NCBI GenBank assembly: GCA_020631435.1
Contig: JAHDHG010000001.1
Location: forward strand, 1 to 47,191
Direction: 5' to 3'
DNA length: 47,191 nt
Source of the DNA: Bacteriovoracaceae bacterium
GTDB lineage: Bacteria; Bdellovibrionota; Bacteriovoracia; Bacteriovoracales; Bacteriovoracaceae
Within the stretch, counting starts at the first letter, position 1, and each line of letters opens with the position of its first letter. The position numbers were made by a program, and so were the translations under genes. Below are positions 23,273-42,741 of the stretch, piece by piece. The notes below the pieces were generated by a model that was not told where the DNA came from, did no database searches, and worked only from the letters and a program-made list of their open reading frames with translations.

Positions 23273-24166
23273 ATGAGTTCTCATTCTAGTAGAAAAACCG
23301 TAACAACTAAGACCAGATCAATGAAACCAAGAAGCCCTCTCTGGCTTTTACTTTGGTTAATCCTTGCTGCACTTTGGGCATTTCTCTCGGGGGATTGGTA
23401 TGTATGCGTTATAGGGAAACAATGTGTTCCACCAACCACCACAACAACGACAACCACCACCACAACAACTACTATGATTACAACTACTACTTTAAAGGTA
23501 GCTGTCCAGGAGTTTGAAAAATTTTATTTCAAAAATAATGACTCACAAGTTTACTTCACTGGAAATTTAAATTCTTCTTATCCAATAATTAAAGAACTTG
23601 CTGAAGAAGATAAAAAGTTAAAAATTGTTGGGCATTACTTTAATGGTGAAGACAAAGAAGTTGGTCTAGCTAGAGCAAGTTCTATAAAAGAAAAATTTAA
23701 ATCTTTTGATTGGTATCAATCAATATCTCTTGATGCTAAAAAAATTGAGTCTGATTTTAGTCCTTCAAAATATGATGAATTTTCATTGGCAAGTGAGCTT
23801 CTAGTTGAAAAAGAACTCGATACCTTCAGAATTGAAAATCAAACGATTTACTTTGGGAAAAATGCAAGCAATCCTCATGAGTCTAAAAAGATCATTGATT
23901 TTCTAAAATCCATTGCTTCACAAATAAAAGCTAAGAAAATCAAAAAAGTTCATGTTGTAGGCCATACTGATAGCGATGGACAAGCTGATAAAAACTATAG
24001 ACTTGGTTTCAAAAGGGCCAAAACGATTAGAAGTCTACTTATAAAGCAAGGGGTTAGCTCAAAGAAAGTTACTTTTGAGTCAAAAGGTGAAGCGAAACCT
24101 GCTGCATCTAATAAAACAAAAGAAGGTAAGGCCTTGAATAGAAGAGTGGAATTAATTACTAAATAG
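23273..24166 (+). CDS. Inner-membrane-anchored OmpA/MotB-like peptidoglycan-binding protein with a poly-Thr linker
   Basis: Basic N-terminus, one TM (PLWLLLWLILAALWAFL) and a T13-MI-T4 linker encoded by mixed ACC/ACA/ACG/ACT codons (23435-23491). The C-terminal VGHTDSDG…NYRLGFKRA…NRRVEL is the OmpA_C-like signature. Confidence 0.88.
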   Translation: MSSHSSRKTVTTKTRSMKPRSPLWLLLWLILAALWAFLSGDWYVCVIGKQCVPPTTTTTTTTTTTTTMITTTTLKVAVQEFEKFYFKNNDSQVYFTGNLNSSYPIIKELAEEDKKLKIVGHYFNGEDKEVGLARASSIKEKFKSFDWYQSISLDAKKIESDFSPSKYDEFSLASELLVEKELDTFRIENQTIYFGKNASNPHESKKIIDFLKSIASQIKAKKIKKVHVVGHTDSDGQADKNYRLGFKRAKTIRSLLIKQGVSSKKVTFESKGEAKPAASNKTKEGKALNRRVELITK

Positions 24167-24178
24167 TAAGGGGAATAT

Positions 24179-25963: not shown

Positions 25964-25993
25964 TCTCAAGATTTAAAAAATTTTTATTACATT

Positions 25994-26020
25994 AAGGCCT
26001 AATTTTTAGGCCTTTTTTTT
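25994..26020 (+). terminator. Rho-independent terminator
   Basis: AAGGCCT-AATTTTT-AGGCCTT hairpin followed by T-run (26013-26020). Confidence 0.8.
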
Positions 26021-26084
26021 CGCCTAGAAATAGAAAGATATTCCCCTGATATAATTAAAACGTAATCAATCTAAGGATTTAAGT

Positions 26085-27512
26085 ATGTATAACAATTTTA
26101 ATATTTTTCACCATGGATCTTCTCTTCAAGAAATATTATACATGCTCGCTATCGCTGGCATACTTGGGTATTTATTATGTTGGTTGTTTGCTACTAGAAA
26201 ATTAAGAGAGTATTGGGCAAGGATCAATCTTAATAAGCATGAAATTGAAAAACTTCAAAATGCTAAGAATTATGATGATTTATTAACTACTCTTTCAACC
26301 AAGATTGCAACATTTGAAAAAAAATTGGCAAAACTTAAGGTGCCGACATTAGATCAATTAGATCTATCTGATTATGTTACTAAAGATATGCTGCCTAAAA
26401 AACAAGATCTTTCAAACTATGTAACTAAAGATATGCTTCCCAAAAAACAAGATCTTTCAAATTATGCTACCAAGGATATGATTCCTAAAAAAATGGATCT
26501 ATCGAACTATGCAACAAAAGATATGATCCCGAAAATTGATCATCTTAAAAGTTTTATTAAAAAAGATGAACTTCACAATCTCTTACCTAAAAATAATAAT
26601 TCAGACTTAGATCTTTCTCAATTTGTAAAAAAAGATGAATTAAATAAAGATGAAATTGATACTAGTCAATTTGCTTTAAAAAGTGATTTGCAAAAGTATG
26701 CTTTATCAAATCAACTTCAAAAATTTGCATCTGTAGATAAGCTGACTTCATTCGTGAAACTAACTGACTTGAAAAATCATTTTAAAAACTATTCTCATGA
26801 AAGTGCTGACATAGTAAAAAAAGAAGATCTTTCTCATTACTTAAGAAAATCTGAGGTTCCCGAAATTCCAAGCATGGATAATTTCGCTAAAAAAGATGAC
26901 CTTGCTCATTATTTAAGAAAATCTGAATTACCGAAAACTGATCTCTCACAGTTTGCAAAGAAAGAAGAATTATCTCACTTCTTAAGAAAATCTGAAATGC
27001 CCAAAAGTGATGAAAGTAAATTTGTGAAAAAAGATGACCTTGCACCCTATTTAAAAAAATCAGAGCTTCCACAAAGTCCTGACTTTTCGGGTTATGCAAA
27101 AAAAGAAGATCTTAATCCATTAAGAGAAAAAATCGAAACAGTAGATAGTGAGAACTCAAAACAAGATGAAAACATTGAAGAATTAAAAGCTATTTTAAGT
27201 GAAATTCCTAAGCCAAAAAAGAAAGTTGTAGAGCTAGATAAAAGAGGAATTCCAAAGAGTACAATTCTTCATCTTCTTTCAATTAAAGACGTGGAATATG
27301 ACAAAAGAAAAAGAGATGATCTTCAAGAAATTAAAGGTATTGGTCCATTTATAGAAAAAAAGGTTAACGCTCTTGGGATTTATACATTTAAGCAAATTTC
27401 ACTACTAAACGACGAAGATATAAGTGTTATTACAGAAGCAATTAAATTTTTTCCAGGAAGAATCATCAGGGATGATTGGGTCGGGCAAGCTGAAGAGCTT
27501 GCCAAGGCATAA
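26085..27512 (+). CDS. Paralog of 24179-25963: same N-terminal TM anchor, different ~15-aa repeats (DLSNYVTKDMLPKKQ; DLSHYLRKSE[LV]P), same C-terminal H3TH/HhH-like domain
   Basis: The N-terminus MYNNFNIFHHGSSLQEILYMLAIAGILGYLLCWLF aligns with MYEHFDIIKNGSPLLEILAMLAGAGILGYLLCWWF. The C-terminal ~90 aa are highly similar (DDLQEIKGIGPFIEKKVNALGIYTFKQI…FPGRIIRDDWVGQAEEL). Confidence 0.88.
   Translation: MYNNFNIFHHGSSLQEILYMLAIAGILGYLLCWLFATRKLREYWARINLNKHEIEKLQNAKNYDDLLTTLSTKIATFEKKLAKLKVPTLDQLDLSDYVTKDMLPKKQDLSNYVTKDMLPKKQDLSNYATKDMIPKKMDLSNYATKDMIPKIDHLKSFIKKDELHNLLPKNNNSDLDLSQFVKKDELNKDEIDTSQFALKSDLQKYALSNQLQKFASVDKLTSFVKLTDLKNHFKNYSHESADIVKKEDLSHYLRKSEVPEIPSMDNFAKKDDLAHYLRKSELPKTDLSQFAKKEELSHFLRKSEMPKSDESKFVKKDDLAPYLKKSELPQSPDFSGYAKKEDLNPLREKIETVDSENSKQDENIEELKAILSEIPKPKKKVVELDKRGIPKSTILHLLSIKDVEYDKRKRDDLQEIKGIGPFIEKKVNALGIYTFKQISLLNDEDISVITEAIKFFPGRIIRDDWVGQAEELAKA
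26361..26540 (+). repeat. Four consecutive in-frame 45-nt units (DLS[DN]Y[VA]TKDM[LI]PK…), with more degenerate repeats continuing to ~27120
   Basis: Read directly from DNA and translation. Units begin at aa 93, 108, 123 and 138. Confidence 0.9.
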
Positions 27513-27812: not shown

Positions 27813-29141
27813 TTAAGTTCTAGCTCTATAGCAAGAAATTATTCGAGGGAATACCAAGTCATATCCTGATGTAAAAAAGCCAAGATCATCAGAAGATGAG
27901 CCTGTTACAGACTTCATAGTGTTATGAAAATCATCCCATAAAACTCCGTTTTGGTCTTCAAATGGATTTGAGCTAAGTTCTCCACCTCTTTGCAGGTAAG
28001 ATATGTCTTGCAAGCAAGATGAGTATGAAATCCATTGATTTTCATCAATACCGATCTGATGCGTATGGTCAAAACCAAGCATGTGCCCAATCTCATGAGA
28101 GTAAACTGTTCCTTTCTCGTTTCCAATTTTTGAATATTCAGAAACAACTGTAGATTCTTTGCTTTCTGGAACTCTATTAAGTTTCGCAATTCCTGCAACA
28201 TTTCCTTGAATTTCTTTTACAAAAACTAAAGAGACCTCTCCTACTTTTCCATATTTATCCAAGATGTTTTCAAAATCATTACAAGATAGATCTCTCGGGT
28301 CACAGTGAACATGAACCAAATTATCTTCAACTTCTATCGCTTCTGAGATTTCAAATTGAAAGAAAGATGAACTTCCATCTCTATTTATCTTTTCATTTAA
28401 AGTTTTTAAAACAAGATCAGCATCCGCACTCACATCTTCAGATAAAGTTGTTTGAGAGCTATTTACAAAAACTATCCTAATAGGAATTTTGTTACTATCA
28501 ATTTCTGAAATAGTTTTATTAAAATGAAGTTTAGCAGAAGAAGTTCTTCCAGTGTTATCTGCAATGGTATAAGAAATTTCAAATGAAGACTCAAGATCAA
28601 AATTTTCATCAAAATTTACTTTAATTCTATTGTTTTCGATAGTTGTGCTTACTCCCTCTATCGATTCAACTTCGTTGATAGTTATAGGATCCCCATCTAC
28701 ATCAATATCGTTTTCTAAAACGTTGACTAAAATTTCATCATTTGATTCTAAATTAACTAGATCATCTGATGAATTTGGGTTGTCTGCTACTGCTCTCACT
28801 TCTAAGATCAATTCGGAAACTACAATCTCATTTGTTGAAAGATTCTCCCAGAACACTCTTACCAAATCAGCTCCTGAATAGTTATGATGAGGGTGATATA
28901 TAAATTTGCCTCCATTTTCTTGAATTTCAATATTGGAATGAACACCATCCATCTTAATCAGCTTATGAGTTTTAGAAAGTGGTAAGTCTCTAAAAACTAT
29001 CTCTTTAGAAAAATTTACTTCAATGTCTTCAGTGGTCACAACCTTGGTTGTTAAGAGGCCATCAGAGTTTGTATTTCCGGGATCTTCTCCATCTGTCGTT
29101 ATTGAGCATGATAAAAATAATGTAAGTAGAAGTATTCTCAC
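27813..29141 (-). CDS. Lipoprotein metzincin-type zinc metallopeptidase with an N-terminal cadherin-like/VCBS-type domain
   Basis: MRILLLTLFLSCS (lipobox LFLSC, GTG start). NVLENDIDVDGDPITI is typical of cadherin-like bacterial adhesion repeats. HEIGHMLGFDHTH matches HExxHxxGxxH. Confidence 0.85.
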   Translation of the reverse strand: MRILLLTLFLSCSITTDGEDPGNTNSDGLLTTKVVTTEDIEVNFSKEIVFRDLPLSKTHKLIKMDGVHSNIEIQENGGKFIYHPHHNYSGADLVRVFWENLSTNEIVVSELILEVRAVADNPNSSDDLVNLESNDEILVNVLENDIDVDGDPITINEVESIEGVSTTIENNRIKVNFDENFDLESSFEISYTIADNTGRTSSAKLHFNKTISEIDSNKIPIRIVFVNSSQTTLSEDVSADADLVLKTLNEKINRDGSSSFFQFEISEAIEVEDNLVHVHCDPRDLSCNDFENILDKYGKVGEVSLVFVKEIQGNVAGIAKLNRVPESKESTVVSEYSKIGNEKGTVYSHEIGHMLGFDHTHQIGIDENQWISYSSCLQDISYLQRGGELSSNPFEDQNGVLWDDFHNTMKSVTGSSSDDLGFFTSGYDLVFPRIISCYRART

Positions 29142-29263: not shown

Positions 29264-30733
29264 TTAAAGCATTGAAGCTGTAAAGTTAAATGGATAGACT
29301 ACAGTTGCTGGTCCACCTTTAGGCCCTGGTGCAAAGCTAATCTTATTAAGAACTCCTGTTAAGCAACCATGAAGCTTTTGATTATTTAATTGAGATTTTA
29401 CTATTCTAGTACCACTAACTCGACCACCGGGAGCAATCTTCCAGCTAATATTAACAATCCCTGCAAGGTTTGGATTTGATAGTAATGACTTTTCATAACA
29501 ATAAGTAAACTTACTCATATGCTTAGCTATAATTTTTCTAATTAAGCTTTGAGACATCTTCCCACCTTTAACAGACATCGATTGTGGCCCTAAGTGAGAG
29601 AGTCCTCCTCCTGAACCACCTGCAGCATGAAGACCAGATACACTTACTTTACCCTGAACATAGTTATAAGATCTTCCTCCCTCAATACCATTAATCTCAC
29701 CATTAGATAAGACTCTACCAGATGCAACAGTTCTAGATCCTTTTGTATTAATCGCACCACTTGATGATCCAAGAACGTTTTTACCCGTTACTTTTGCTAG
29801 AAAGTTTGTACCTTTAACATTTTTTGCTCCAGCAAGACCTTTTCCTCCACCAACAGCAAATCCTCTACCGCCTTTTCCACCTGGTGGGATATTAAAATCC
29901 CCTTTACCTTTAGTAAGGAAGTTAAGTGAGTTAGCAACTTTTGCTTTTGTTTGTGCCAATCTCTTTGCCTGTGCCCTTGCAGCTGTATTACCTTTTGCAT
30001 TTGGATTTCTTGGACCTGTACCACCTCTTTTAGGAGGACCTTTTTCAACAACAAGTCTCTTCATTGGTCTCTTATCATTTACTACTTTTACAGTTCCTTT
30101 AGTCTTATTCGGACTTGGCCTTTTTGATTTTTTCTCACTAAGTAGATTTGATCTTTTCTTTGGCTTCTTCTGAGGTTGAATTTTTCTTTTCGGTTTTGGC
30201 TTAGGTTTCTCAGCAACTTTTGGCTTAGGTCTCGTAGTTGTAGTCGGAGCTAGAGTTGTTGTTGTCGCTTTTACAACTATCTTCTTTTCTTCGGATAATT
30301 TCTTTAATAACTTCTCAACTCTTTTTTCACTCTCTTTCTCTTCTTTGACTTCAGCAACTGGAGAAGAGCTATCTGATCCTGTCGGTAACATCATTGCAAT
30401 CGCTAAATTTAAAAAAACAGAGAATGCAACATAAGCATACATTCCATAATCAAGTGCGTATAAAAAATCTTCATAAAGATCAAAGTAAATATCTGTCCCA
30501 TCTTTATGCTTCATTCTTAGAGAAGAACCTATATTGATACTTCTAACTTTTTTCTCGTCTCCGTAAACATCATACTGACCATTTTTTCCAATCTTCTTGA
30601 AAAAATAGTTTGTTCCCTTAATATTTATCTTGAATTGATTACTATCAGTAACAGAGAACTGTTTATCTAGTAACCTTAGACTATCGGATTTTCTCTTATA
30701 CTTAACATTTAATAATTTTTTCTTTTTTAACAT
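29264..30733 (-). CDS. TonB-like bitopic protein with an AgmX/PglI-type C-terminal domain (GltG/GltJ-like candidate)
   Basis: A ~95-aa cytoplasmic N-domain, one TM (MYAYVAFSVFLNLAIAMML), a Pro/Lys spacer (KPKVAEKPKPKPKRKIQPQKKPKK) and a Gly-rich tract. The C-terminus …FTYCYEKSLLSNPNLAGIVNISWKI…GRV…HGCLTGVL…F…VVYPFNF is TonB_C-like with the two-Cys pattern I associate with myxobacterial AgmX/PglI tails. Confidence 0.7.
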   Translation of the reverse strand: MLKKKKLLNVKYKRKSDSLRLLDKQFSVTDSNQFKINIKGTNYFFKKIGKNGQYDVYGDEKKVRSINIGSSLRMKHKDGTDIYFDLYEDFLYALDYGMYAYVAFSVFLNLAIAMMLPTGSDSSSPVAEVKEEKESEKRVEKLLKKLSEEKKIVVKATTTTLAPTTTTRPKPKVAEKPKPKPKRKIQPQKKPKKRSNLLSEKKSKRPSPNKTKGTVKVVNDKRPMKRLVVEKGPPKRGGTGPRNPNAKGNTAARAQAKRLAQTKAKVANSLNFLTKGKGDFNIPPGGKGGRGFAVGGGKGLAGAKNVKGTNFLAKVTGKNVLGSSSGAINTKGSRTVASGRVLSNGEINGIEGGRSYNYVQGKVSVSGLHAAGGSGGGLSHLGPQSMSVKGGKMSQSLIRKIIAKHMSKFTYCYEKSLLSNPNLAGIVNISWKIAPGGRVSGTRIVKSQLNNQKLHGCLTGVLNKISFAPGPKGGPATVVYPFNFTASML

Positions 30734-30734
30734 T

Positions 30735-30956
30735 TTAAAAACTCTGTGATTTTATTTCTTTTTTATAATTTTTTCTTAATTTAATGAAATCAATTGCCTC
30801 TCTCTCATTCTGTAGTTTCAATAGCATATTAAGATTTCTGGATTGACCTCGAACCTCAATAGGTTTATCACTTGGCGCATCTAGTGCACTTAGCCCTGAA
30901 CCCGTTTGCTGAGCAAAAACTGATAATGAAAATAAAAAGCAAAAAATTAACTTCAA
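30735..30956 (-). CDS. Small secreted/periplasmic protein (73 aa) embedded in the motor operon
   Basis: Signal-like MKLIFCFLFSLSVFAQQ. There is a 4-nt overlap with the upstream ExbD-like gene and a 1-nt gap to the downstream gene. Confidence 0.6.
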   Translation of the reverse strand: MKLIFCFLFSLSVFAQQTGSGLSALDAPSDKPIEVRGQSRNLNMLLKLQNEREAIDFIKLRKNYKKEIKSQSF

Positions 30957-31441
30957 TTCTTTTCCTTATTCATTGAAACAAAATCAACGTAGTTCAAGCT
31001 CAACTCAGAAGCACCTCTAATAATTTCATCTATATAAAGATAAGGTACGTCTTTATCTGCTTGAATTGTTAACTTTATTTTATCATCTTTTTTATTTGAA
31101 GCTATGTTGCGGTCAAGATGCTCTTTTCTTAAGTCTTCTAATTCTTCTTTCACCTGAACAAGAATTTGCTCTCTTTCGCCATCAAAATTAGAAAAATTAA
31201 TGATTTCCCCTTTTCCAACTTTGATTTGGCTCTCACCTATGACCATAGTAATTCCAAAACTTGACTGAGCTGCTTTACCTTCAACAGTTGGCAGTTCAAT
31301 AAAACTTGGAATTTCTTTCTCTTCATTAACTTCTGAATAATTCACGAGTAAAAAAATCAGGATAATTGTAAGTGCATCCATCAAGGATGTAATATTCAAT
31401 TTCTCTGGCTTTTTTCTTCCTCTTCCTGAAAACTTTCCCAT
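30953..31441 (-). CDS. ExbD/TolR-family protein (AglQ/AglS-like), conserved TM Asp present
   Basis: KLNITSLMDALTIILIFLLV matches the ExbD/TolR N-terminal block (…N-[IV]-T-P-L-I-D-V…), retaining the Asp (D22). 162 aa. Confidence 0.8.
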   Translation of the reverse strand: MGKFSGRGRKKPEKLNITSLMDALTIILIFLLVNYSEVNEEKEIPSFIELPTVEGKAAQSSFGITMVIGESQIKVGKGEIINFSNFDGEREQILVQVKEELEDLRKEHLDRNIASNKKDDKIKLTIQADKDVPYLYIDEIIRGASELSLNYVDFVSMNKEKN

Positions 31442-31448
31442 AATTCCT

Positions 31449-31985
31449 CTAATCTATATTCATTTCAGTTAATGCTGGAAGCATCACAACTTTAAACTTA
31501 AACTCTTTTCCTTCATCTTCTGACGCCAATCCTCTTAGAGGTTTTTTCAAACCTTCAAGCACTGGAATAAGCTTTCCGTAAACAACGTCATCTTTTGTCG
31601 TCACCAGAACAGTTTCAAGTTTTGAATATTTATCTTTAATTTTTTCTAACAGTCCTAAAATTTTCTCAGCACCTTCTAAAGTAGAATCTGCTTTTCTTTT
31701 TAAAACAACTGCTCCATTTTCTTCATCAAGAATATTTAATCGAGTAATTTCTTGATCGATATAAACTTGAGCCGTTACCATTTTTTCTTTATTTACTTTT
31801 TCCGGAATAGGCTGATCTTCACTAGGAGGAGAACTTGCTCCTGGGACTGAAGTTTCAACAACTCTAAAGTGATAAAACGCTAAGTTTGATAAGAGTAATG
31901 GAATAATGATGATCAAAAGACTCATGAAAGGTAGGATTGCATCTACTTCTTCCATTTCTTTTTTTACAAACTTTTGTTTTTTCAT
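31449..31985 (-). CDS. ExbD/TolR-family protein paralog; the TM Asp position is apparently occupied by Ser
   Basis: VDAILPFMSLLIIIIPLLL aligns with the ExbD block with Pro conserved, but has FMS where LID is expected. 178 aa with a periplasmic domain of ExbD size. Confidence 0.7.
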   Translation of the reverse strand: MKKQKFVKKEMEEVDAILPFMSLLIIIIPLLLSNLAFYHFRVVETSVPGASSPPSEDQPIPEKVNKEKMVTAQVYIDQEITRLNILDEENGAVVLKRKADSTLEGAEKILGLLEKIKDKYSKLETVLVTTKDDVVYGKLIPVLEGLKKPLRGLASEDEGKEFKFKVVMLPALTEMNID

Positions 31986-32013
31986 TCTTTCTTCCTTAAA
32001 AAAGCTTTAACTA

Positions 32014-32692
32014 TTAACCGTGTCTTTTAAATTCTTTATACTCTTGAAACTGAGTTTCACTGTTCACTGTCTCTGCATGAGGCTTGTGAACTACTAAGTG
32101 AGTCATCTCTGAAACAACTTCATCATACTTTTTAAGAATTCTATCTTCTTTAGAACTTAAAATTGTGTACATAATGATACATGGAATTGCGAAGACCGAA
32201 TGCCGTCGTATTCATAGCTGTCGAAATACCTGCAGCAAGAAGAGCAGCTTTATCAGCACCACTTGCAGCACCTAAAGATGAGAATGATTGAACAAGTCCA
32301 GCAATTGTTCCAAGTAATCCAATTAGAGTTGAAACGTTACCAATCATATTAATATAATTTGTCCTTGCTTGAATCCCTGGTAATACTTTTTGAAATTCAA
32401 TATCACTCGCTGACTCAATTGCATCTTGAGATTTATTTGCATTATAAAGAACTGCAGCGATAACTTTTGCTAATGGATGTGATGTTGTTAAACATGCATT
32501 ATAAGCTTCTCTTAATCTTCCATCTTTAACCATTGACTTTACTCTCGCAAAAAATTTATTCTTTACATGATAGTTCATAAATAAAGCAACAAATCTCTCG
32601 ATTCCAAATGCTACAGCAGCAACTAATAAGCAAGTAATGGCGATCATATAACCATCTGCAAATAAAAAATCTATAATCTTACCCAAATTCAT
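32014..32692 (-). pseudogene. MotA/TolQ/ExbB-family proton channel (AglR-like) interrupted by a frameshift near 32190-32192
   Basis: Track ORF 32150-32692 ends …GISTAMNTTAFGL then reads out of frame (RNSMYHYVHNFKF*). Skipping the base at 32191 gives …TTAFGL-AIPCIIMYTILSSKEDRILKKYDEVV…KRHG* (stop at 32014-32016). That restores the canonical GL..AIP TM3 block and a 225-aa TolQ-sized protein. Confidence 0.85.
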
Positions 32693-32807
32693 AATCCTCT
32701 CCTTAGGCTTTCATGAGTTTTCTTTCTTAAATGTTTATCGGTGTTTTTTAAAAGAGCTTTATTTTTAGATGATTAAGGCAAATTATTCCCGAGTCAATTA
32801 CTTGGTT

Positions 32808-33563
32808 TTAGTACAGATAAGAAAACTCAATCATCATCACTGTATCAGCCTCAAGTTCAGCAAAAATAACAGGATCATTAAATGCTGCCAAATCAGCAGT
32901 AGTTGGTACCCTATCCCATTTCTTATCATTTTTTTTCAAATCAAAGCTTTGCTTATAAAAGACTTCATTAATTTGAAAGATATTTCCATTTTTGAGCCTT
33001 ACAGACTGAGAAAGAATTCCTCCAAATATAGTACCAGTTGAAGATAACTTTACAGGCCTTTTAGTTTGATATGCGCCACCACCAGGAAGAGCATTAGGAG
33101 ATCTAAAAAATACTTCCACATCCGGATACTGCACACCTTCTATTCCAAAAAGACCGCCAATACTTAAATCGACATTATCAAATAAGGTAAAGAGTTTTAA
33201 CTTTGGAGCAGTTCTAAAAGAAAAGTTCCAAGACTTAGCAAACTCTGTTGAAGTAAAAGTTCTTCCTAGAGATACAGATAAAATTTCCCAATCAAGAATA
33301 CCTGTCTTCCAATGAATTTGAAGAGGGCTTAATGCCATAAAATACTTTGATCCCATTAGACCAAGTGGTGATAATCCTAGACCTATAAAAAATGAATTTT
33401 CTGGTGGAGTAAAAAGAAATTTCTTAAGCTCTGGATACTCCTTAATGACCTTCGCATCTTTTTGTTCATCTTTATTTTGATTAAATTGATATTTATTTGA
33501 TGCTTGAAAGGTTTTTGAAAAAACCAAACTAGAAAATAATGAAATAATCAAAATTAGCTTCAA
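32808..33563 (-). CDS. Predicted small outer-membrane beta-barrel protein (GltA/B/K-like candidate)
   Basis: Signal peptide MKLILIISLFSSLVFS. The C-terminus …MIEFSYLY has alternating hydrophobic/aromatic residues ending in an aromatic (OMP beta-signal). There is a 1-nt gap from the upstream gene. Confidence 0.7.
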   Translation of the reverse strand: MKLILIISLFSSLVFSKTFQASNKYQFNQNKDEQKDAKVIKEYPELKKFLFTPPENSFFIGLGLSPLGLMGSKYFMALSPLQIHWKTGILDWEILSVSLGRTFTSTEFAKSWNFSFRTAPKLKLFTLFDNVDLSIGGLFGIEGVQYPDVEVFFRSPNALPGGGAYQTKRPVKLSSTGTIFGGILSQSVRLKNGNIFQINEVFYKQSFDLKKNDKKWDRVPTTADLAAFNDPVIFAELEADTVMMIEFSYLY

Positions 33564-33564
33564 A

Positions 33565-36500
33565 TTATAAACCTTTTAAACAACTAGCTTTTAGTCCACC
33601 AAGAGATGAGCCGTTTTTCAAGAAATATTTTGCTTCACTTAATAAATTTAATTTTTTAGAACTACAACCAATAATTGTATTTAAACTCTGAGTATCAGCT
33701 TCATCTAAAGATAAAGCATAAGTTGAGGCAGCTGCTGCATAATTATAAGCACCTTGCTTATAATATTTTTGAGCAATATCAAATAATGAGTCGGCTTTAA
33801 AGCTAGAAAATAAACTCTTTTTAATGGAAGCATGACTAGATTCTGGCATTGAAGCAACTGATCTAAATGGCTTTCCTTGAGTCCAAAACGCAACACTAGA
33901 AAAACTCTTCTGCTGTCCAGTCTTACAAAATTTATTTGTAGGAGTGACTAAACCAGAACTTGCAACAATTTCTCTACATCTTGAAAGAAAACTTTTTGCA
34001 TTGACTTCAGATTCTTGAATCTTTCCAGCGAGTACTTCTTTAATACTAGGGTTTTTAGAAGCAACTCTTTTTAAATAATTTGCAAAACTTGAAAATAATT
34101 TATATTGCCTTAATGAACTCACCATCCCAAGTTGTGCATCATCTCCACCTTCAAGTTGAGAATAAGCTCCAGCAAGTTCTGAAAAAGTTGTTGCATATTT
34201 TTCAATTGATTCAGCAGCAAGATTTGCATTTTTCAAACTAGAATTAAAACTTTTTGCTTTGTTATCAACTTGTTCTAGTCCTATCCAATTACAAACTGAT
34301 CCACCTCCACCAGAGGCACAAAGTCTAGAGCTCATAGATTTAGCATATCCATTTAAAGAAGAGCTTAATCTAGGCCTTGCTTTAAATAAAGATTTTGCAA
34401 GATCAGGGTTAGCTCCCAAAGCTTTAACTGTACTAGAAATATTAGATGGAACTCTTACAGGTGACTCTAAAATACTTCCAATCTGTTGAACTAACTGAGC
34501 TTTGTAATCAGAGCCAAGAGCTTGAATCATAGATGATTTAGAGCCTAGCTTGGCAATCTTATTTGGATCTTTCAAAGCTACTGCAAGCGAAACTGCCTGC
34601 TTAAAAGCAGCTACTTTACTATCACTACTTCCATTTGAAGCGATACTCATATACCTATTAAAGGCCTGATCAAAATTAGTCATTTTTAATTGCTCTTGAG
34701 CAATCGATGATTCAATTTCACTTCTTTTACTAGGGTCCTTTTCATTTTTTGCCATTAAAGAAGCAGTCTTCATAAAAGTTTTAAAATCTTTTTCCGCTTT
34801 AGAAGCATCAAGTGCTTTTTTAAGTGCTAAATTTCTTAAATCTGAATCTAGGTTAGCAGCTTGTTGTAAATAACTTTGACCAGTAGAGCTGCTTGATCCA
34901 GCTTTATTATGAACAATTTTTTGAAGCTTTTTTAACTTTGCTTGATCTCTAATTGCAGCAACTTTTGAATTAATAGATGAATTAGGTAACTTCATTGCTA
35001 ATATTTTATTTGAAGCATTGATAATACCTTTGAAATCAGATTTTACATTATAATAATCCAAGACAAGGTTACTAGCATCTTCGGCATGAGAATGCTTAGG
35101 AAATCTCTTCATATAAGAATAAAGCATAGGCAATGCTTTTCTATAAAAGCCCTGATCATAGTGAGCTTTAGCAAAAGAATAATTAGTTTTAGGATCTCTT
35201 TTTTTCGAAGGATCAAATCTCATATAGTTTTTTATTGATTCTATAAGAAGTCCATTGACTCTTCTCGTTTCATAAAAAGAATACTCTTTGTTTTTTTGAA
35301 GGGCGTAAATTGCATTTTTAATTGCATCCCCTTTTTGTTTTGTTTTACCAAAGTCACCTTTAAAAACTCTTAAATAGTAGTCACCACTTTTCAGATAATC
35401 TTTGAGTCTAAAATGGGTGTCCCCCATATTCATCGCTAACTTAACTGAGTGCTTAGTTTTAGGGAAAGTAGCAAAATATAAATTATAAAATGCATCTGCT
35501 TTTTTCAAATAATCTTTTTGGATTTCCCCAGTCGTTTTCTTACCTTTTTCATGGGATCTTGTTGCTAAATCTCTTAATTGCTTTTCAAAAAAATCATAAG
35601 TACTTTTCTTCACACTTCTTTTGAGATTGAAGAAATTATTAAATTGTAGGTATCTTCCAATAACATACTCAATTTCAGATATTGGAACATCCACTCTTCT
35701 ATTAAGTGGAATCATAAGAAGTACTTCTTTATAAATATTCAGAACTTTCTCAGGGCTAGAATTTCTTTCACTTAAAGTTCTTAATAACTTCACCGCATCA
35801 TTATATTTCTTTTGATGAATATATCGATAAGATAATTTCTCTATTACTTCCTGAAATAAATTCTCAGTAGGAGCAATAGCAGAATAATAACTTACTGGCT
35901 TTGCATTCTTCTTGTAAACTTCTGTGAAGGCCCTCACCGAATCAATTAGTGCTTCTCTTTTTAGTGAAGATTTCACATCTTTAGAATCAAGAGACAGTTT
36001 CTTTTCATTATCTTCAGCTTGAAGTTCTTTATCAGTCACAACTTCTTTGAATAAATCTAATGCTAACTTATGTTTTCCTTGTGCAAGTCTAATCAAGCCC
36101 ATTTTATATTTTGCAGCATTTCTCTCATAAGAATAGTTCGATTTCGAAACTGGAGACAAGCTTTTATAAGCTTCATCGTAAACTCCACCATCAAATTGAA
36201 ACTGCCCTAATAACAATCTCGATTGGACAGCTTCTTTCGAGCTAGGATATTTTTTAATTATCTGATTAGCCGTTTGCATAAAAGGAACTCTATCATCGAT
36301 AGATCTTTGAGCTAATGCCATAGCATAGTAGGCCCTAGGTAATCCTTTAAATTTAGGAAATTCTTTAGTTATTTTTTTATAAACTGCAATTGATTCTTTT
36401 GTAACCGCAACGACATCTTCAAATTGCCTTGCTCCATCATCACCTTCAGCTTTCTCACCTTTTAGTTTTTCCATTTTAAGGTAATACATTACATTGGCTT

Positions 36501-36705
36501 TTTGACTTAATAATCCACCAAGCTCCATATAAAGATTCGCTAGATAAGGTGCTGCTTGATTTGAGGTGATTTGATCTCTTAAGATATCAACAGATTTATT
36601 TATTCTACTGTACATCTTTTGAAGTTTTCGATTAAATTCTCTTTCTGAGTTTTGACCGAAAGCCATTGAGAAACAAAGAATGATACTAATATATATTAAT
36701 CGCAT
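33565..36705 (-). CDS. Large periplasmic TPR-repeat protein (1046 aa; GltD/AgmU-like candidate)
   Basis: Signal peptide MRLIYISIILCFSMAFG. Recurrent TPR-like A-x-Y-x-x-A/G…P patterns occur throughout (for example YYAMALAQ, AKYKMGLIRLAQGKH, FAKAHYDQGFYRKALP). Confidence 0.7.
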   Translation of the reverse strand: MRLIYISIILCFSMAFGQNSEREFNRKLQKMYSRINKSVDILRDQITSNQAAPYLANLYMELGGLLSQKANVMYYLKMEKLKGEKAEGDDGARQFEDVVAVTKESIAVYKKITKEFPKFKGLPRAYYAMALAQRSIDDRVPFMQTANQIIKKYPSSKEAVQSRLLLGQFQFDGGVYDEAYKSLSPVSKSNYSYERNAAKYKMGLIRLAQGKHKLALDLFKEVVTDKELQAEDNEKKLSLDSKDVKSSLKREALIDSVRAFTEVYKKNAKPVSYYSAIAPTENLFQEVIEKLSYRYIHQKKYNDAVKLLRTLSERNSSPEKVLNIYKEVLLMIPLNRRVDVPISEIEYVIGRYLQFNNFFNLKRSVKKSTYDFFEKQLRDLATRSHEKGKKTTGEIQKDYLKKADAFYNLYFATFPKTKHSVKLAMNMGDTHFRLKDYLKSGDYYLRVFKGDFGKTKQKGDAIKNAIYALQKNKEYSFYETRRVNGLLIESIKNYMRFDPSKKRDPKTNYSFAKAHYDQGFYRKALPMLYSYMKRFPKHSHAEDASNLVLDYYNVKSDFKGIINASNKILAMKLPNSSINSKVAAIRDQAKLKKLQKIVHNKAGSSSSTGQSYLQQAANLDSDLRNLALKKALDASKAEKDFKTFMKTASLMAKNEKDPSKRSEIESSIAQEQLKMTNFDQAFNRYMSIASNGSSDSKVAAFKQAVSLAVALKDPNKIAKLGSKSSMIQALGSDYKAQLVQQIGSILESPVRVPSNISSTVKALGANPDLAKSLFKARPRLSSSLNGYAKSMSSRLCASGGGGSVCNWIGLEQVDNKAKSFNSSLKNANLAAESIEKYATTFSELAGAYSQLEGGDDAQLGMVSSLRQYKLFSSFANYLKRVASKNPSIKEVLAGKIQESEVNAKSFLSRCREIVASSGLVTPTNKFCKTGQQKSFSSVAFWTQGKPFRSVASMPESSHASIKKSLFSSFKADSLFDIAQKYYKQGAYNYAAAASTYALSLDEADTQSLNTIIGCSSKKLNLLSEAKYFLKNGSSLGGLKASCLKGL

Positions 36706-38030
36706 TTGCTCTCCATTGCTCCATAATATTTATGTCTTTCATCTCTCCAATAATCACCTAATTGTTTCCACTTAAAGATGAAACCTTTATTTTCATAATC
36801 AATAACATCCACTAAACTTTCTTGCTCCTTATCTCTTGGAATAAAGACTGTCAGAGGATTATATTTCTCTCTAGCTGTAGAGTACCCTAAAAATTTTAAT
36901 GACTCTGATAACATCGTCAGTTCTTCTGCGGCCCTATCTAAAGCCTTTTCTTTGTAAAAGCCTGCGTACTTCTTTAAAATTTTCAGCTCTGAAGAATATA
37001 AGTATTTTGCCAGAGAAGCATTTCTTCTATTTAACTCTCCAACCTCTTTTCTTTCATCAATCAATGAAGTAATTGAATCTAATACTTTTTTATATTGAGG
37101 GTGAGTATTTCTAGCAACCTTATGAAGCTGCTTTAACTTAGCTAATCTTTTACCTTTAACAATACCATCAACAGAACCTTTAAATTCTTTATTAAAACTT
37201 CTCATCAGGTTCGTAATATTTTTCACTCTACAGTTTTCTAAGTAGACCTGTGCTCTTAAAATATATTTTTCGAATGATGGATATTTTTTTGAAGATTCTG
37301 CTTCTAAGTTATAAAGAGTTCCCATGAGCTCATCATATTTTTTCAAATAATAAAGATTCCATGCTTTTTCCATCCAATCACTTGGTGTAAGAGGATTTAC
37401 CTTAAGTAAAAAATCATCGTAATAACTTAAAGATTTCTCATATTCTTTTCTTTCAAAGTGAATTCTTGCTTTCGTTCTCACTACTTTTTTAGCAAAAGTA
37501 AAGTCTTGTTCTTTAAGAGGATTTCTTAAAATTTGATCAAGTACAATAGAGCTCTCAAAGAGTTGCCCCTTATTATAAAGATCAATCGCTTGATAAAATT
37601 GATACTTCTTAAAATTATCTTTATCTATCCTCTTAAAAAAATCTTGTGACCACTTTTCTAAGTTTTTAATCTTATTAGTCACACCTTTATAAAAATTATA
37701 ACTTTGGGTAAACTGATCTCGTTCTGTTCTATCGAGATCACCAACAAAGAAAATATCCATCAGACTATGAGGATATCCAATATCAATTAAGGCCACTAAA
37801 TATTCGAATGCTTTTTCCTTGCTCTTCAAATCATCAAAGAAATGAATCATTCTAAAAGAGGCTGCCAGTACCCCGTAATACATGCCTTTTTCATAAAGAT
37901 CATCTATTAACTTGTGCCATCTTTCTGGCTTGCTAGCTATAGAAGGAATCTTACCTTCCCACTTTACTTTAGCCGCTTGAGAAAAACTCAAGTTCACAAA
38001 AATAGATAGAATGACTAAATATTTAATCAT
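36696..38030 (-). CDS. Periplasmic helical-repeat/TPR-like protein (444 aa; GltE/AglT-like candidate)
   Basis: Signal peptide MIKYLVILSIFVNLSFSQA and helical repeat character. It overlaps the downstream TPR gene by 10 nt. Confidence 0.65.
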   Translation of the reverse strand: MIKYLVILSIFVNLSFSQAAKVKWEGKIPSIASKPERWHKLIDDLYEKGMYYGVLAASFRMIHFFDDLKSKEKAFEYLVALIDIGYPHSLMDIFFVGDLDRTERDQFTQSYNFYKGVTNKIKNLEKWSQDFFKRIDKDNFKKYQFYQAIDLYNKGQLFESSIVLDQILRNPLKEQDFTFAKKVVRTKARIHFERKEYEKSLSYYDDFLLKVNPLTPSDWMEKAWNLYYLKKYDELMGTLYNLEAESSKKYPSFEKYILRAQVYLENCRVKNITNLMRSFNKEFKGSVDGIVKGKRLAKLKQLHKVARNTHPQYKKVLDSITSLIDERKEVGELNRRNASLAKYLYSSELKILKKYAGFYKEKALDRAAEELTMLSESLKFLGYSTAREKYNPLTVFIPRDKEQESLVDVIDYENKGFIFKWKQLGDYWRDERHKYYGAMESKCD

Positions 38031-38033
38031 TTA

Positions 38034-38705
38034 TTAAAATCTCCAAGCGAGCATACCTTTGAACTCTCCAAATTCAAGAAAGTTATTTCCAACTCCACTT
38101 CTTTCAAGATTGATATGATTCATATACTCCAATTTCCAAGACATAGTTTTAGTAATAGAAAAATCTAATTGAAATCCTAAATTTGCAGCGATATAAGTCT
38201 GACCGCTTCCACCACCCGTATCAATTTGACCAGAGGTTCCAATAACTCCTAACCCAAACAAAAGTTCAGTTCGATTTAACCTGATGTACTTATCAAAAAA
38301 TATGTTTTTCCCATAACTTAAAACATATTTTAAGTTTGTATTCACCATGAATTCAGTTTGTTCTAAATCTTCAGATTCAATTGGATTTCCTGCTTTCGCA
38401 GTTTCTTCTAAAATTTCGTCTGCCAGAGGTGTTTGAATTCCAAATAAAAAATTACCACTAAGAACTTCCCACCCCCACTTCTTATTAAAGTACCTAGAGT
38501 AAGCAAGAGAAATTCCTATTCCATAAAAATATGGATCGAAAGGCAAAAAAGTTGCTCCAATAGCAAATTCATTCTTTTTCAAAGCAGGATAGTTATCAAC
38601 GGCCTTAATAAAGACTCCATCAAGATCTTCGTATTCAGTATCTGAATAACTAATAGTAGGACTTAACATTCCACTGATAACAATGAGACAAAACAAGTAT
38701 TTCAT
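38034..38705 (-). CDS. Predicted small outer-membrane beta-barrel protein (first gene of the operon)
   Basis: Signal peptide MKYLFCLIVISGMLSPTISYS, alternating beta-strand patterns and the C-terminal beta-signal …GMLAWRF. Confidence 0.75.
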   Translation of the reverse strand: MKYLFCLIVISGMLSPTISYSDTEYEDLDGVFIKAVDNYPALKKNEFAIGATFLPFDPYFYGIGISLAYSRYFNKKWGWEVLSGNFLFGIQTPLADEILEETAKAGNPIESEDLEQTEFMVNTNLKYVLSYGKNIFFDKYIRLNRTELLFGLGVIGTSGQIDTGGGSGQTYIAANLGFQLDFSITKTMSWKLEYMNHINLERSGVGNNFLEFGEFKGMLAWRF

Positions 38706-38931: not shown

Positions 38932-39642
38932 TTAACTTCTTCTTCTAAAAAATACAAACATCACTAATAATAAGAAGATACCACCGTAAAGAATCAAGTC
39001 ATCATTATCTTTATTGCTTTTCTTAACTACTTTTTTAGGCCCAGAATCAACAGCAATTGATGGAGCTTCTTCCTCGTCAGGTGTAAAAATATCAAAGCTC
39101 TTTTTCTTAATAGGTGTCTTTCTAGAACTAGCCTTAACACCTCTTTTTCTATAAACCCTTATGGAGCTGATCATTTTATTAAATAAATTTGAATAAGTTG
39201 AATAAAATGGTCTGGCAATGGAAATAGTAAAAGCAATTCCTAGATCTTCTTTTACTGTTGCTAAATACCTTGTGTAATAATCTGGAATTTCACTGGATAA
39301 ATGAAGAGCATCAACCCAGCTATGATTATTAATTTTATTCACTTTTAGAGACTTAGGCTCACTTACAATAACATCTCCACTGGCCAGTCTCATCTTCTTT
39401 CTTTTCTTTAGATAAGTTTGATAATGCCTTAGGGAATCAACTTCCCCTCTCATTTTAGCAGCAAAAATAATGATAGCTTCCTTCTTTCTTTCTTCTATCG
39501 TGCTCTGACAAATATATTCTGTACCTTCTAATGTACATTCCCAGCCAACAGGTAAATCAAATGCTATATAGTTATTCTCAAATCTCTTGGCAAAACTTTG
39601 AGAAAAGATAGTAGAAAAAAGAATGAATGCTAAAACTCTCAT
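38932..39642 (-). CDS. Hypothetical protein with an N-terminal signal peptide and a C-terminal TM anchor
   Basis: MRVLAFILFSTIFSQSFA signal, a Lys-rich spacer, then LILYGGIFLLLVMFVFFRRRS at the C-terminus. Confidence 0.75.
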   Translation of the reverse strand: MRVLAFILFSTIFSQSFAKRFENNYIAFDLPVGWECTLEGTEYICQSTIEERKKEAIIIFAAKMRGEVDSLRHYQTYLKKRKKMRLASGDVIVSEPKSLKVNKINNHSWVDALHLSSEIPDYYTRYLATVKEDLGIAFTISIARPFYSTYSNLFNKMISSIRVYRKRGVKASSRKTPIKKKSFDIFTPDEEEAPSIAVDSGPKKVVKKSNKDNDDLILYGGIFLLLVMFVFFRRRS

Positions 39643-39664
39643 AAATAAAGTACTTTGACTAAAA

Positions 39665-40279
39665 TTAATTAATTATCTTTATTGTAGACGATGTATCTTC
39701 AGATCCAAAATCATTATCTATCAAGTCAAATACAACTAAATCCTTAATTTTCTTCCATTGATGAAGATTTTTTTCAAAAATAGCAATACTTTTAATATTT
39801 AAATCAACTGGAAACCAGAATTCTTCCTGTGAACTTTTATAGGCATCTTGAAAGTCAGACTCAAAATTATACTTACCCATTAAAAGATAAGGACTTTTTG
39901 CTTCTCTTTTTTTCAAGGATACTGTTTGCTTTTTCTTAATATCTTTTAATGATTCTATACAATGATAAAAATCAATAGAAAATCTAGGATTTAAATACAA
40001 AAGAAATTTTTTGTAATGCTCGTAAACATCTAGTCCTGTAAATGTTACGGAATGAATTTCTTTAGTATCAATAAAAAAAGAAGAGACTTCTTCTTCAAAC
40101 ATTTCAAATGTTGATTCAAGTAAGTCTTTGTTCTTAAAGGTAAAAGGAGCAATAAGAGGAAGATTAATAGTAAAAGCATCATCATGCTTTAAAGAGTTTC
40201 TTTTCCTAAAATTACTCAGTTTTTTAAAGAATGAGTTATTCTCTTCAAAAGTCAGAGTAACAATATATTTTTTTTCCAT
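39665..40279 (-). CDS. Hypothetical cytoplasmic protein (204 aa)
   Basis: Clean ORF between eno and the next gene. No family motif recognised. Confidence 0.7.
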   Translation of the reverse strand: MEKKYIVTLTFEENNSFFKKLSNFRKRNSLKHDDAFTINLPLIAPFTFKNKDLLESTFEMFEEEVSSFFIDTKEIHSVTFTGLDVYEHYKKFLLYLNPRFSIDFYHCIESLKDIKKKQTVSLKKREAKSPYLLMGKYNFESDFQDAYKSSQEEFWFPVDLNIKSIAIFEKNLHQWKKIKDLVVFDLIDNDFGSEDTSSTIKIIN

Positions 40280-41610: not shown

Positions 41611-42741
41611 TTAAGCTGCTTTTTTTATCTTTTTCACCCAATCAGGAGCTTCAAATTTACTACTAGGAAAAGGAAGTCTATTTACTTTTATTTGATCAAA
41701 GAAAGTTGGAAGATACTGGCATGCAACCAACTCACCAACTAGATCTCCAGTTTCTGGATCTTTTGATTTCTGAACCCACTTGAAAATGTCTTTAAGCCTA
41801 TAAGATCCGTTATCATTAACACCAAGAAGCTCTGAAATATGAGAAACTCTTCTTTTTCCATCTGAGAATCTTTTAGTCTGTACAATCAAGTTAACAGCAT
41901 TAGAAATCATTAACTTCAAAGAATTTGCAGGAATAGATGTTTTAGCTTGCAGACAAAGAGTCTCTAATCTCAAGCATGCTTCGGGTGGATTATTCGCATG
42001 AACTGTTCCCATAGAGCCATCATGTCCTGTATTCATTGCATTCACTAAATCTAAAGCTTCCGCTCCTCTAACTTCTCCTACAATAATTCTATCTGGTCTC
42101 AATCTCATAGCAGAGTGTAATAACTCTTTTGTTCCTACTGCTTTAATATTTTGAGCAGGATCTTCTTTTCTTGTTATCAGGTGAACAACATGTTGATCAT
42201 CAAGATCCATTTCTTTTGTATCTTCGATAATGATAATTCTTTGATTATCTGAAATCCTTGATGCTAGTACATTTAAAAGAGTCGTCTTACCAGAACCTGT
42301 TCCACCTGAGACAAGCATGTTTTTTCCAAGATAAATACATATATCAAGAAACCTTGCTGCATCTTTACTTAAGGCTCCCCATTCAATGAGATCATTTAAA
42401 ATTATTTTTTCTTTAAAAAACTTTCTAATTGAGACAACTGTTCCGTTTGTACTTATAGGACTTATGACAGCTGCTAGCCTAGAACCATCTGGAAGATGTG
42501 CATCTAACCTCGGATCATCCTCATCAAACTTTTTCCCTACAGCTTGAGCAATCGCTCTCATCGCTGCCATTAAATTATCATTATCTTTAAATCGATTATC
42601 TGTTCTAATGATCTTTCCTTTTGATTCAATATAAATCTCAAAAGGCCCATTAATCATAATCTCTGAAATACTCTCGTCATCGAGAAGATCACTTATTGGG
42701 GATAAAAAATTCTGAATGGCATCATTAAAAACACTCATCAA
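41611..42741 (-). CDS. cpaF: CpaF/TadA-type secretion ATPase (type II/IV secretion system protein E family)
   Basis: Walker A VSGGTGSGKTTLLN, IIIEDTKE (Asp box/Walker B), RLRPDRIIVGEVRG and NTGHDGSMGTVHAN (His box). 376 aa. Confidence 0.85.
   Translation of the reverse strand: MMSVFNDAIQNFLSPISDLLDDESISEIMINGPFEIYIESKGKIIRTDNRFKDNDNLMAAMRAIAQAVGKKFDEDDPRLDAHLPDGSRLAAVISPISTNGTVVSIRKFFKEKIILNDLIEWGALSKDAARFLDICIYLGKNMLVSGGTGSGKTTLLNVLASRISDNQRIIIIEDTKEMDLDDQHVVHLITRKEDPAQNIKAVGTKELLHSAMRLRPDRIIVGEVRGAEALDLVNAMNTGHDGSMGTVHANNPPEACLRLETLCLQAKTSIPANSLKLMISNAVNLIVQTKRFSDGKRRVSHISELLGVNDNGSYRLKDIFKWVQKSKDPETGDLVGELVACQYLPTFFDQIKVNRLPFPSSKFEAPDWVKKIKKAA

Follow-up and report, generated by a model that had tools for sequence, protein, structure and literature searches.

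The stretch of DNA analyzed here comprises positions 1–47,191 of contig JAHDHG010000001.1 (assembly GCA_020631435.1); this entire stretch, with a GC content of ~32%, is referred to below as the window. Positions 29264–38705 of the window are occupied by nine minus-strand genes (g1 to g9; Table 1) that probably represent a Bdellovibrionota-type Agl-Glt gene cluster, that is, an "expanded core complex" of Luciano et al. (2011) related to the gliding machinery of Myxococcus xanthus. All nine open reading frames (ORFs) that an earlier note on this DNA had listed in this interval are present, with the same sizes. The genes are tightly packed, with a 3-nucleotide (nt) gap between g1 and g2, a 10-nt overlap of g2 and g3, a 1-nt gap between g3 and g4, a 115-nt gap between g4 and g5, a 7-nt gap between g6 and g7, a 4-nt overlap of g7 and g8 and a 1-nt gap between g8 and g9. 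The earlier description of the spacing as 1–28 nt, apart from the 115-nt gap, holds for these junctions, but the 28-nt gap after the channel gene g5 is obtained only if g5 is read through a frameshift, whereas the ORF as read leaves 164 nt to g6. A scan for promoters and terminators yielded counts no higher than those in shuffled controls. Domains were called using Pfam and NCBIfam, protein families were scanned using hidden Markov models (HMMs), and loci were compared using phmmer and hmmsearch.

Table 1. The nine genes of the cluster and the adjoining candidate accessory gene, with their positions in the window (aa, amino acids).
Gene	Position	Strand	Size and predicted product
g1	38034..38705	-	223 aa; OMP_myx_plus-type outer-membrane beta-barrel, GltA/GltB-like
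g2	36696..38030	-	444 aa; periplasmic helical/TPR protein, GltC homolog
g3	33565..36705	-	1046 aa; periplasmic TPR scaffold, putatively GltD-like
g4	32808..33563	-	251 aa; predicted second outer-membrane barrel
g5	32014..32692	-	TolQ/ExbB-like (AglR-like) channel gene, split by a 5-nt deletion; ORF 32150-32692, 180 aa
g6	31449..31985	-	178 aa; TolR/ExbD-like, transmembrane Asp lost
g7	30953..31441	-	162 aa; TolR/ExbD-like, transmembrane Asp (D22) kept
g8	30735..30956	-	73 aa; secreted, possibly GltF/CglF-like
g9	29264..30733	-	489 aa; GltG-like bitopic transducer
candidate accessory gene	27813..29141	-	442 aa; predicted lipoprotein, Big_9/cadherin-like domain and metzincin motif

The g9 protein, with a transmembrane helix at residues 97–117, matches the model of the AgmX/PglI C-terminal domain (NF033768) at 85.7 bits, more than twice the cutoff of 40, whereas its TonB_C score stays below the cutoff (17.1 vs. 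24.6). The motif CYE...GC...YPFNF and both of its cysteines are invariant across the g9 family, in agreement with the earlier note, which had described a TonB-like bitopic protein with a two-Cys domain of the AgmX/PglI type and had proposed the HMM comparison reported here. The GltG and GltJ models aligned to g9 as well, but weakly. The AlphaFold model of g9, built on an alignment of 23 sequences, consists of four parts, namely an all-beta cytoplasmic domain of ~92 residues, the transmembrane helix, a linker that is long, disordered and rich in Pro/Lys and Gly, and a C-terminal domain with a pLDDT of about 90. In a Foldseek comparison with the PDB, the top 15 matches of the C-terminal domain were all C-terminal domains of the TonB family (TM-score up to 0.71), so that this domain is modeled with the TonB C-terminal fold, which has been reported also for GltG and GltJ of M. 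xanthus (PMC11761067). A sequence search of the PDB with the GltG-like protein gave no matches. No FHA domain was detected in g9 by Pfam, in the family alignment or by fold search; for the N-terminal beta domain, FHA was considered and rejected since the match was weak (rank 35, probability 0.35), and the fold of this domain is left unassigned.

The genes upstream of the motor genes encode four predicted envelope proteins with signal peptides. The GltC model is matched by 14 of the 15 members of the g2 family (best E-value 1.9e-22), and the g2 profile in turn matches a 505-aa protein of a metagenomic contig (locus L032) which itself scores 209.8 bits with the GltC model; by these profile matches g2 is classified as a GltC homolog, at the level of homology only. 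A PDB search with the GltC-like profile yielded only generic TPR proteins. The g1 protein, which ends in ...LAWRF, scores 42.6 bits with the OMP_myx_plus model (TIGR04565), below the cutoff of 60; this model is matched by all 14 members of the g1 family, and those from L032 and from a gammaproteobacterial locus (L024) exceed the cutoff. The gene g4, found directly after g3 in 12 loci, encodes a protein with an aromatic C-terminus (...FSYLY); the alignment of the g1 and g4 families by hhalign (92.7% probability, E-value 4.3e-7, 82 columns) suggests that g4 is a distant paralog of g1 and is thus also predicted to form a barrel. Neither g1 nor g4 matches a GltA or GltB equivalog, g4 has no match in Pfam or NCBIfam, and its single-sequence AlphaFold model (pLDDT 33) is unusable. 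Of the two outer-membrane barrels proposed in the earlier note, the first is thus supported through OMP_myx_plus, and the second by the hhalign match, the signal peptide and the C-terminus, with no match in the model libraries.

The g3 protein has a type I signal peptide, CpoB/YbgF-like TPR matches, in line with the earlier description of a large TPR protein, and non-TPR helical flanks. The YbgF model is matched by all 27 aligned sequences of the g3 family, for which about 60 full-length homologs are found in Bdellovibrionota. The g3 profile is colinear with the large TPR protein that adjoins GltC/GltG genes in L024 (E-value 3.8e-44, phmmer), L033 (2e-67) and L032 (6.5e-20). No GltD model in NCBIfam is matched by the g3 family; searches with the single sequence and with a 19-sequence profile retrieved only unnamed or generic "TPR" or "TolA-binding" proteins of Bdellovibrionota and no named GltD/AgmU, and among the 220 matches below 1e-30 from a HMMER scan of 1.84 billion representatives, clusters of 20 gave no informative names. 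In Bdellovibrio bacteriovorus, proteins of 987–1237 aa from similar clusters have been assigned to GltD (PMC3169522 Table S3). Considering its size, architecture and position, and the homology that links it to the large TPR protein encoded in GltC/GltG clusters of other phyla, we infer that g3 is GltD-like. Six cysteines (C796, C805, C910, C927, C1014 and C1042) are conserved in the non-TPR C-terminal region of the g3 family (residues ~796–1042), and two (C267 and C443) are invariant in the GltC-like protein, which suggests disulfide-stabilized periplasmic domains in both.

The small g8 protein combines a signal peptide with a conserved C-terminal motif, GQSRNL...F.K.R.DY..EI, and members of its family adjoin the motor genes in 16 loci. 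An NCBIfam scan of the g8 family itself yielded no direct CglF match. The positional counterpart of g8 in L024 matches gliding_CglF (25 bits, E-value 1.2e-5) and is aligned with the g8 family by hhalign (70.7% probability, E-value 3.8e-5); CglF is the same protein as GltF (PMC4488436). Position, size and signal peptide fit, and g8 is possibly GltF/CglF-like through this weak two-step chain.

The three motor genes correspond to the MotA/TolQ/ExbB-like channel and the two ExbD/TolR-like proteins recognized previously, with a MotA_ExbB match for g5 (68.8 bits) and ExbD matches for g7 (48.8 bits) and g6 (18 bits). The order of a channel gene followed by two distinct TolR-like genes is kept in the relatives. 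The g6 protein, with a single N-terminal transmembrane helix, carries LPFMSLL in place of the P-x-x-D motif, as do all members of its family including that of the gammaproteobacterial L024, whereas g7 has ITSLMDAL, with the transmembrane Asp D22 conserved throughout the family. The Asp position of the g6 family is taken by Ser or Asn in all members from Bdellovibrionota and in the gammaproteobacterial one; both TolR-like subunits keep the Asp in the FHA-type clusters L032 and L033. In M. xanthus, the D28N substitution in AglQ, at the counterpart of the g7 Asp, abolishes Agl function (PMC3858216). The channel of the window aligns with the L024 channel at 116 bits, compared to 39 bits for the L024 channel and TolQ of Escherichia coli, a difference that points to a separate lineage of TolQ-like proteins associated with these clusters.

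Homologs of the GltG-like protein were viewed on their contigs and one genome collection was scanned with an alignment of the C-terminal domain and the pattern YCYE[KR][SA]LL[ST], so that ~30 loci were compared altogether. The pattern scan retrieved neither M. xanthus nor B. bacteriovorus HD100, and the Myxococcales loci that were retrieved (L025–L031) contain the AgmX/PglI-domain gene alone, with no other genes of the cluster. The closest relatives of the cluster are in metagenome-assembled genomes (MAGs) of Bacteriovoracaceae and Halobacteriovoraceae, which show the same order of the nine genes, with 58–84% identity of the GltG-like protein. Two modules can be delineated, one consisting of the barrel, the GltC-like protein, the large TPR protein and the second barrel, and the other of the small protein, the channel, the two TolR-like proteins and the GltG-like protein; they are linked in at least 15 genomes, all from Bdellovibrionota/Oligoflexia except for one gammaproteobacterium. 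This recurrence in many genomes shows that the nine-gene arrangement is not due to chance. Among the more distant Bdellovibrionota/Oligoflexia, the order of the modules is swapped in L009, L016 and L019, and they are divergently transcribed in L012, L015, L018 and L020–L023. The loci with linked modules also include the gammaproteobacterial L024 and the FHA-type L032. L016 (DYRY01000045.1) is labeled 'Anaeromyxobacter dehalogenans' and was considered as a myxobacterial link but was rejected, given that its GC content is 28.6% and its cluster is of the Bdellovibrionota type; the label is almost certainly wrong.

In L024 (Alteromonadaceae bacterium Bs31), the channel gene and two TolR-like genes are followed by genes for a 104-aa protein, a GltG-like protein, an OMP_myx_plus barrel, a GltC-like protein, a large TPR protein and a 463-aa protein. 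In L032, the channel gene and two TolR-like genes are accompanied by genes for a barrel, a GltC-like protein, TPR proteins of 1031 and 311 aa, and a GltG protein with FHA domains, and profiles of the window families match every corresponding L032 protein. The L024 barrel (L024:10320-11024) scores above the OMP_myx_plus cutoff, at 75 bits, and the small CglF/GltF-like gene of this locus (L024:7601-7915) has the 25-bit match given above. The genes gltA, gltB and gltF have been listed as restricted to Myxococcales and Bdellovibrio (PMC3169522); judging from the sequence matches, a barrel of the GltA/B type may account for the "additional gene" of core complexes. A separate set of genes was noticed in a Bacteriovoracaceae MAG (L010:4711-10297), where a channel gene, a small protein gene and a 146-aa GltG-like fragment are followed by a second channel gene, two TolR-like genes and a gene for a 709-aa FHA-type GltG, with no barrel/GltC/TPR module nearby; multiple Agl/GltG sets therefore exist in Bacteriovoracaceae.

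Because TolQ (E-value 4e-14), followed by ExbB, is the nearest relative of the repaired g5 protein in the PDB, a divergent Tol-Pal or TonB-ExbBD system, engaged in outer-membrane tethering and division or in energized uptake, has to be considered, all the more so because g3 contains CpoB/YbgF-like TPRs, the C-terminal domain of g9 has a TonB fold and an OmpA-family gene is located 5 kb away on the opposite strand. The likeness to Tol-Pal extends to the overall design, in which a proton-driven stator of the TolQR type is combined with an elongated transducer resembling TolA/TonB and with a TPR partner resembling CpoB. We nevertheless consider such a system very improbable here. The scores for the TolQ, TolR and ExbB equivalogs are all far below the cutoffs (for g5, 47.8 vs. 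221 with TolQ and 28.7 vs. 206 with ExbB; for TolR, 23 vs. 127), and TonB_C is below its cutoff whereas the AgmX/PglI model is well above its own. A query with E. coli TolB found no match in the window or in the ~30 related loci, and a query with E. coli Pal found only the OmpA-family gene mentioned above, which is present in close relatives only. No TonB-dependent receptor, TolB or Pal families were found in the Pfam-annotated neighborhoods or among the scanned ORFs of the window, and neither a receptor nor Pal is ever a conserved neighbor, the situation that the earlier note had named as one that would speak against an Agl-Glt-like motor. The conserved partners are instead the GltC-like, GltD-like and OMP_myx_plus proteins. 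The exclusion of both TonB uptake and Tol-Pal in that note is thus supported, as is its central proposal of an Agl-Glt-like envelope-spanning motor, by the GltG-type domain, the GltC and OMP_myx_plus families and the linkage of these partners across genomes.

The assignment to the Agl-Glt systems, which we favor, is in accord with the published comparative genomics. The seven-gene "core complex", which consists of aglRQS, gltC, gltD, gltE and gltG, occurs in gammaproteobacteria, some deltaproteobacteria (Geobacter) and Fibrobacter, and any bacterium with AglRQS and GltA-G has been suggested to be a potential glider (PMC3169522). B. bacteriovorus HD100 encodes four "expanded core complexes", Bd0413-0420, Bd0828-0838, Bd1474-1481 and Bd2369-2376 (PMC3169522), which comprise GltC, GltB, GltG, (GltF), GltD, AglS, AglQ and AglR, with a GltE homolog only in Bd0828-0838; in Bd1474-1481, GltC has 713 aa, GltB 254, GltG 488, GltF 82 and GltD 1237, next to AglS, AglQ and AglR (PMC3169522 Table S3). 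The cluster in the window contains the TolQ-like gene, two TolR-like genes, the GltG-type protein, the GltC homolog and predicted barrels of the GltA/B type; it lacks a GltE (AglT) homolog and a third TPR protein, the gene after g3 being barrel-like, with no TPR matches. When compared by published assignments and sizes, its gene content is nearly equal to that of the HD100 clusters, with a GltG-like protein of 489 aa against 488 aa in Bd1476, a small gene of 73 against 82 aa, a GltD-like TPR protein of about 1050 aa against ~1000–1240 aa, a GltC-like protein and a barrel of ~250 aa. GltE is absent here and in three of the four Bdellovibrio sets, and both lineages are predatory Bdellovibrionota. 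In contrast to HD100, the window comes from a different family (Bacteriovoracaceae/Halobacteriovoraceae-like, 32% GC), has nine co-directional genes in another order, two barrels and a frameshifted channel gene, and its GltC-like protein has 444 aa compared to 355–713 aa.

Compared to the core complexes L024 and L032, the cluster shares AglR, AglQ, AglS, GltG, the barrel, GltC and the GltD-like protein, all clustered and detectably homologous, whereas in these two loci the GltD-like gene is followed by one for an additional protein (of 463 aa in L024; in L032, the 311-aa TPR protein, at the place where a GltE would be expected) and the second barrel is lacking, and the GltG of L032 is of the FHA type. 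With M. xanthus the cluster has in common the TolQR-like motor with two distinct TolR-like subunits, the AgmX/PglI domain with a TonB fold, the GltC homolog, a large TPR scaffold, OMP_myx_plus barrels and a small periplasmic protein next to gltG. The differences are that the window genes form a single 9.4-kb block whereas those of M. xanthus are distributed over three loci (G1, G2 and M1); that GltE, GltH, GltI, GltJ, GltK, CglB, AglZ and MglA have no counterparts in the window; that the GltG-like protein has a beta domain of ~92 aa where M. xanthus GltG has two FHA domains; that the GltD-like protein has a type I signal peptide where M. xanthus GltD has a lipoprotein Cys; and that one of the TolR-like subunits lacks the Asp. 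The "one for one" correspondence with the M. xanthus parts list claimed in the earlier note thus does not hold, given the single large TPR protein beside the GltC homolog, the missing GltE/AglT, GltH, GltI, GltJ, GltK and CglB, the weak link to GltF and the indirect one to GltD. Nor is the idea of a minimal core new, because both the seven-gene core and the four expanded core complexes have been published (PMC3169522). Expanded core complexes of predatory Bdellovibrionales have been known since 2011, and the locus described here is a real, conserved Agl-Glt-type cluster in a Bacteriovorax-like predator that adds little in kind.

Several observations weigh against the placement of the locus among the Agl-Glt systems or against a role in motility. 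The GltG equivalog scores 64 bits on g9, far under the cutoff of 650, indicating a homolog that is not of ortholog grade, and the match of gliding_GltC (NF033756) to g2 (E-value 1.9e-7, 30 bits) is far below the equivalog cutoff of 450. The assignments of g3 to GltD and of g8 to GltF are indirect. Pfam and NCBIfam scans of the ORFs in the 47-kb window found no GltH, GltI, GltJ, GltK, CglB, AglZ or MglA, and thus agree with the previous remark that no cytoplasmic GltI/AglZ/MglA-type genes are nearby. The core complex has been argued not to suffice for motility by itself, and non-gliding bacteria possess it too (PMC3169522); our literature search found no report of gliding for this lineage. Finally, the channel gene is frameshifted as sequenced.

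The frameshift in g5 deserves a separate discussion. As read, the ORF comprises 180 aa and closes with an unrelated C-terminus (...TAFGLRNSMYHYVHNFKF followed by the stop), and the remaining part of the protein (FAIPCIIMYTILSSKEDRILKKYDEVV...KRHG) lies in a different frame that ends with the stop codon at 32014, whereas the channel genes of all relatives are intact (225–227 aa). In the DNA alignment with the relatives, five bases (ATYGT, between GGTCTT and xGCAATT) are absent from the window at about 32191/32192. The deletion falls within the GLIVAIP motif in the third transmembrane helix, the most conserved transmembrane motif of the channel, and shifts the frame into a stop 13 codons on. Unless the missing bases reflect a mistake in assembly, or the role of g5 is taken over by a paralogous motor, this copy of the cluster is predicted to be inactive. 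The cluster might accordingly be a decaying or inactive copy with a dead channel, one of several paralogous Agl-Glt sets among which another does the work. We regard this as a real contender, although somewhat less probable than its opposite. It is favored by the location of the lesion in such a conserved motif, with the early stop; by the position of the deletion outside any homopolymer run; by the end of the contig inside a 16S gene, which is typical of short-read assembly, where such indel errors should be rare; and by the paralogous motor/GltG sets in relatives (L010 and L014) and the four sets in Bdellovibrio. However, the remaining eight genes of the cluster and the genes on either side of it are full length, with the same lengths as in the relatives, and the lesion is therefore either very recent or an assembly error. 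An assembly or consensus error may also account for it; metagenome scans spanning the junction found no independent contig, and in homolog searches the proteins of the window were found on this contig only, with no independent assembly. With the channel gene frameshifted, the function of this copy is not to be assumed.

For an intact cluster of this type, a mechanism can be outlined by homology to the Agl-Glt system of M. xanthus and to the Tol/Ton systems. A TolQ-like pentamer of g5 in the inner membrane, together with a heterodimer of the TolR-like g6 and g7, would turn proton flow into movement, with the proton-binding Asp provided by g7 and lost from g6. From the motor, the movement would reach the GltG-like g9 through its transmembrane helix. 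The Pro/Lys- and Gly-rich linker of g9 would cross the peptidoglycan, so that the TonB-like C-terminal domain could dock on the CpoB-like region of the GltD-like g3 scaffold. The GltC homolog g2 would bridge this scaffold to the predicted outer-membrane barrels g1 and g4, and g8 may assist. An interaction between AglR and GltG has been described along with the core-complex concept (PMC3169522), and in the structural model of the M. xanthus machinery, the linker and TonB-like domain of GltG are placed on GltD, GltC lies under the GltA/B barrels and GltF is bridging (PMC11761067). By analogy with Bdellovibrio, the most likely output would be a force exerted at the cell surface, serving gliding and contact with the prey surface. 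B. bacteriovorus glides, and prey attachment, killing and rounding all fail in a transposon mutant of Bd0838 (aglS) (PMC6561027). According to a 2026 review, the gliding machinery of Bdellovibrionota is still "unidentified" (PMC13104615).

The gene that follows the cluster, 122 nt downstream of g9, encodes a predicted lipoprotein with a Big_9 match (51 bits) and reprolysin-like matches in Pfam; the HEIGHMLGFDH metzincin motif and lipobox-like N-termini are conserved. It immediately follows the GltG-like gene in those relatives whose gene order is that of the window, including a Halobacteriovoraceae MAG (L003/L008) with a different upstream flank, and is a candidate accessory adhesin or protease of the machine.

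This conserved neighbor bears on a serious rival to the motility reading, namely that the same architecture has a non-motility output, either as a "basal" device for envelope transport and maintenance or as a mover of surface polymers like Nfs; what it transports or displays at the surface might be a protein or polymer, for example the adjacent metzincin lipoprotein. In addition to the Ig-like/metzincin gene, this explanation is suggested by the homologous cluster in an Alteromonadaceae genome (L024), by the core complexes of non-gliders, which probably have another function, and the non-motility roles of M. xanthus paralogs (Luciano et al., 2011, PMC3169522; Wartel et al., 2013), and by the failure to find the cytoplasmic platform genes GltI, AglZ and MglA and the adhesin CglB in the window. 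On balance we find it unlikely, given that B. bacteriovorus, with four such clusters, glides and that the aglS mutant from one of these clusters is defective at prey contact; furthermore, the window spans 47 kb only and the rest of the genome may hold the missing genes. A bolder proposal, which we consider doubtful at best, is that in Bacteriovoracaceae/Halobacteriovoraceae these genes form a self-contained ten-gene unit, without GltE, GltH, GltI, GltJ, GltK, CglB or a GltI-type platform, the surface output of which is the downstream Ig-like/metzincin lipoprotein. The unit would then be a motor-coupled adhesin or protease acting on the prey surface and not a classical focal-adhesion glider, with the short non-FHA cytoplasmic domain of g9 and the loss of the Asp from one TolR-like subunit as adaptations to the simplified design.

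The upstream genes at 38932-40279 were considered as parts of the machine and rejected, as they are conserved in the closest relatives only and are absent from L003. On the plus strand, at 23273-27512 and convergent with the cluster, the OmpA-family gene (297 aa, with a Pal-like C-terminal domain) is followed by ORFs of 594 and 475 aa that have no Pfam match; homologs of the OmpA-family gene are found in L001/L005 and L007 but not in L003/L008. A TadA/VirB11/TrbB-type secretion ATPase of 376 aa is encoded at 41611-42741 on the minus strand, directly upstream of enolase, with no other pilus or secretion genes seen beside it. A bacterial 16S rRNA gene, of which the 5' part (the first 363 nt) is present, is cut by the end of the window at 1-426 on the minus strand, which suggests that the contig breaks at an rRNA operon.

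In practical terms, what matters for this particular genome is that its sequence contains a disrupted channel gene. The interest of the cluster would rise only if the reduced set proved to be self-sufficient or coupled to a new surface output. Whereas the four paralogous sets complicate the genetics of B. bacteriovorus, a single conserved block could be a cleaner system, which could help to ask which parts are required to transmit force through the envelope and what output is produced at the surface, with the metzincin/Ig lipoprotein next door as a candidate for the latter.

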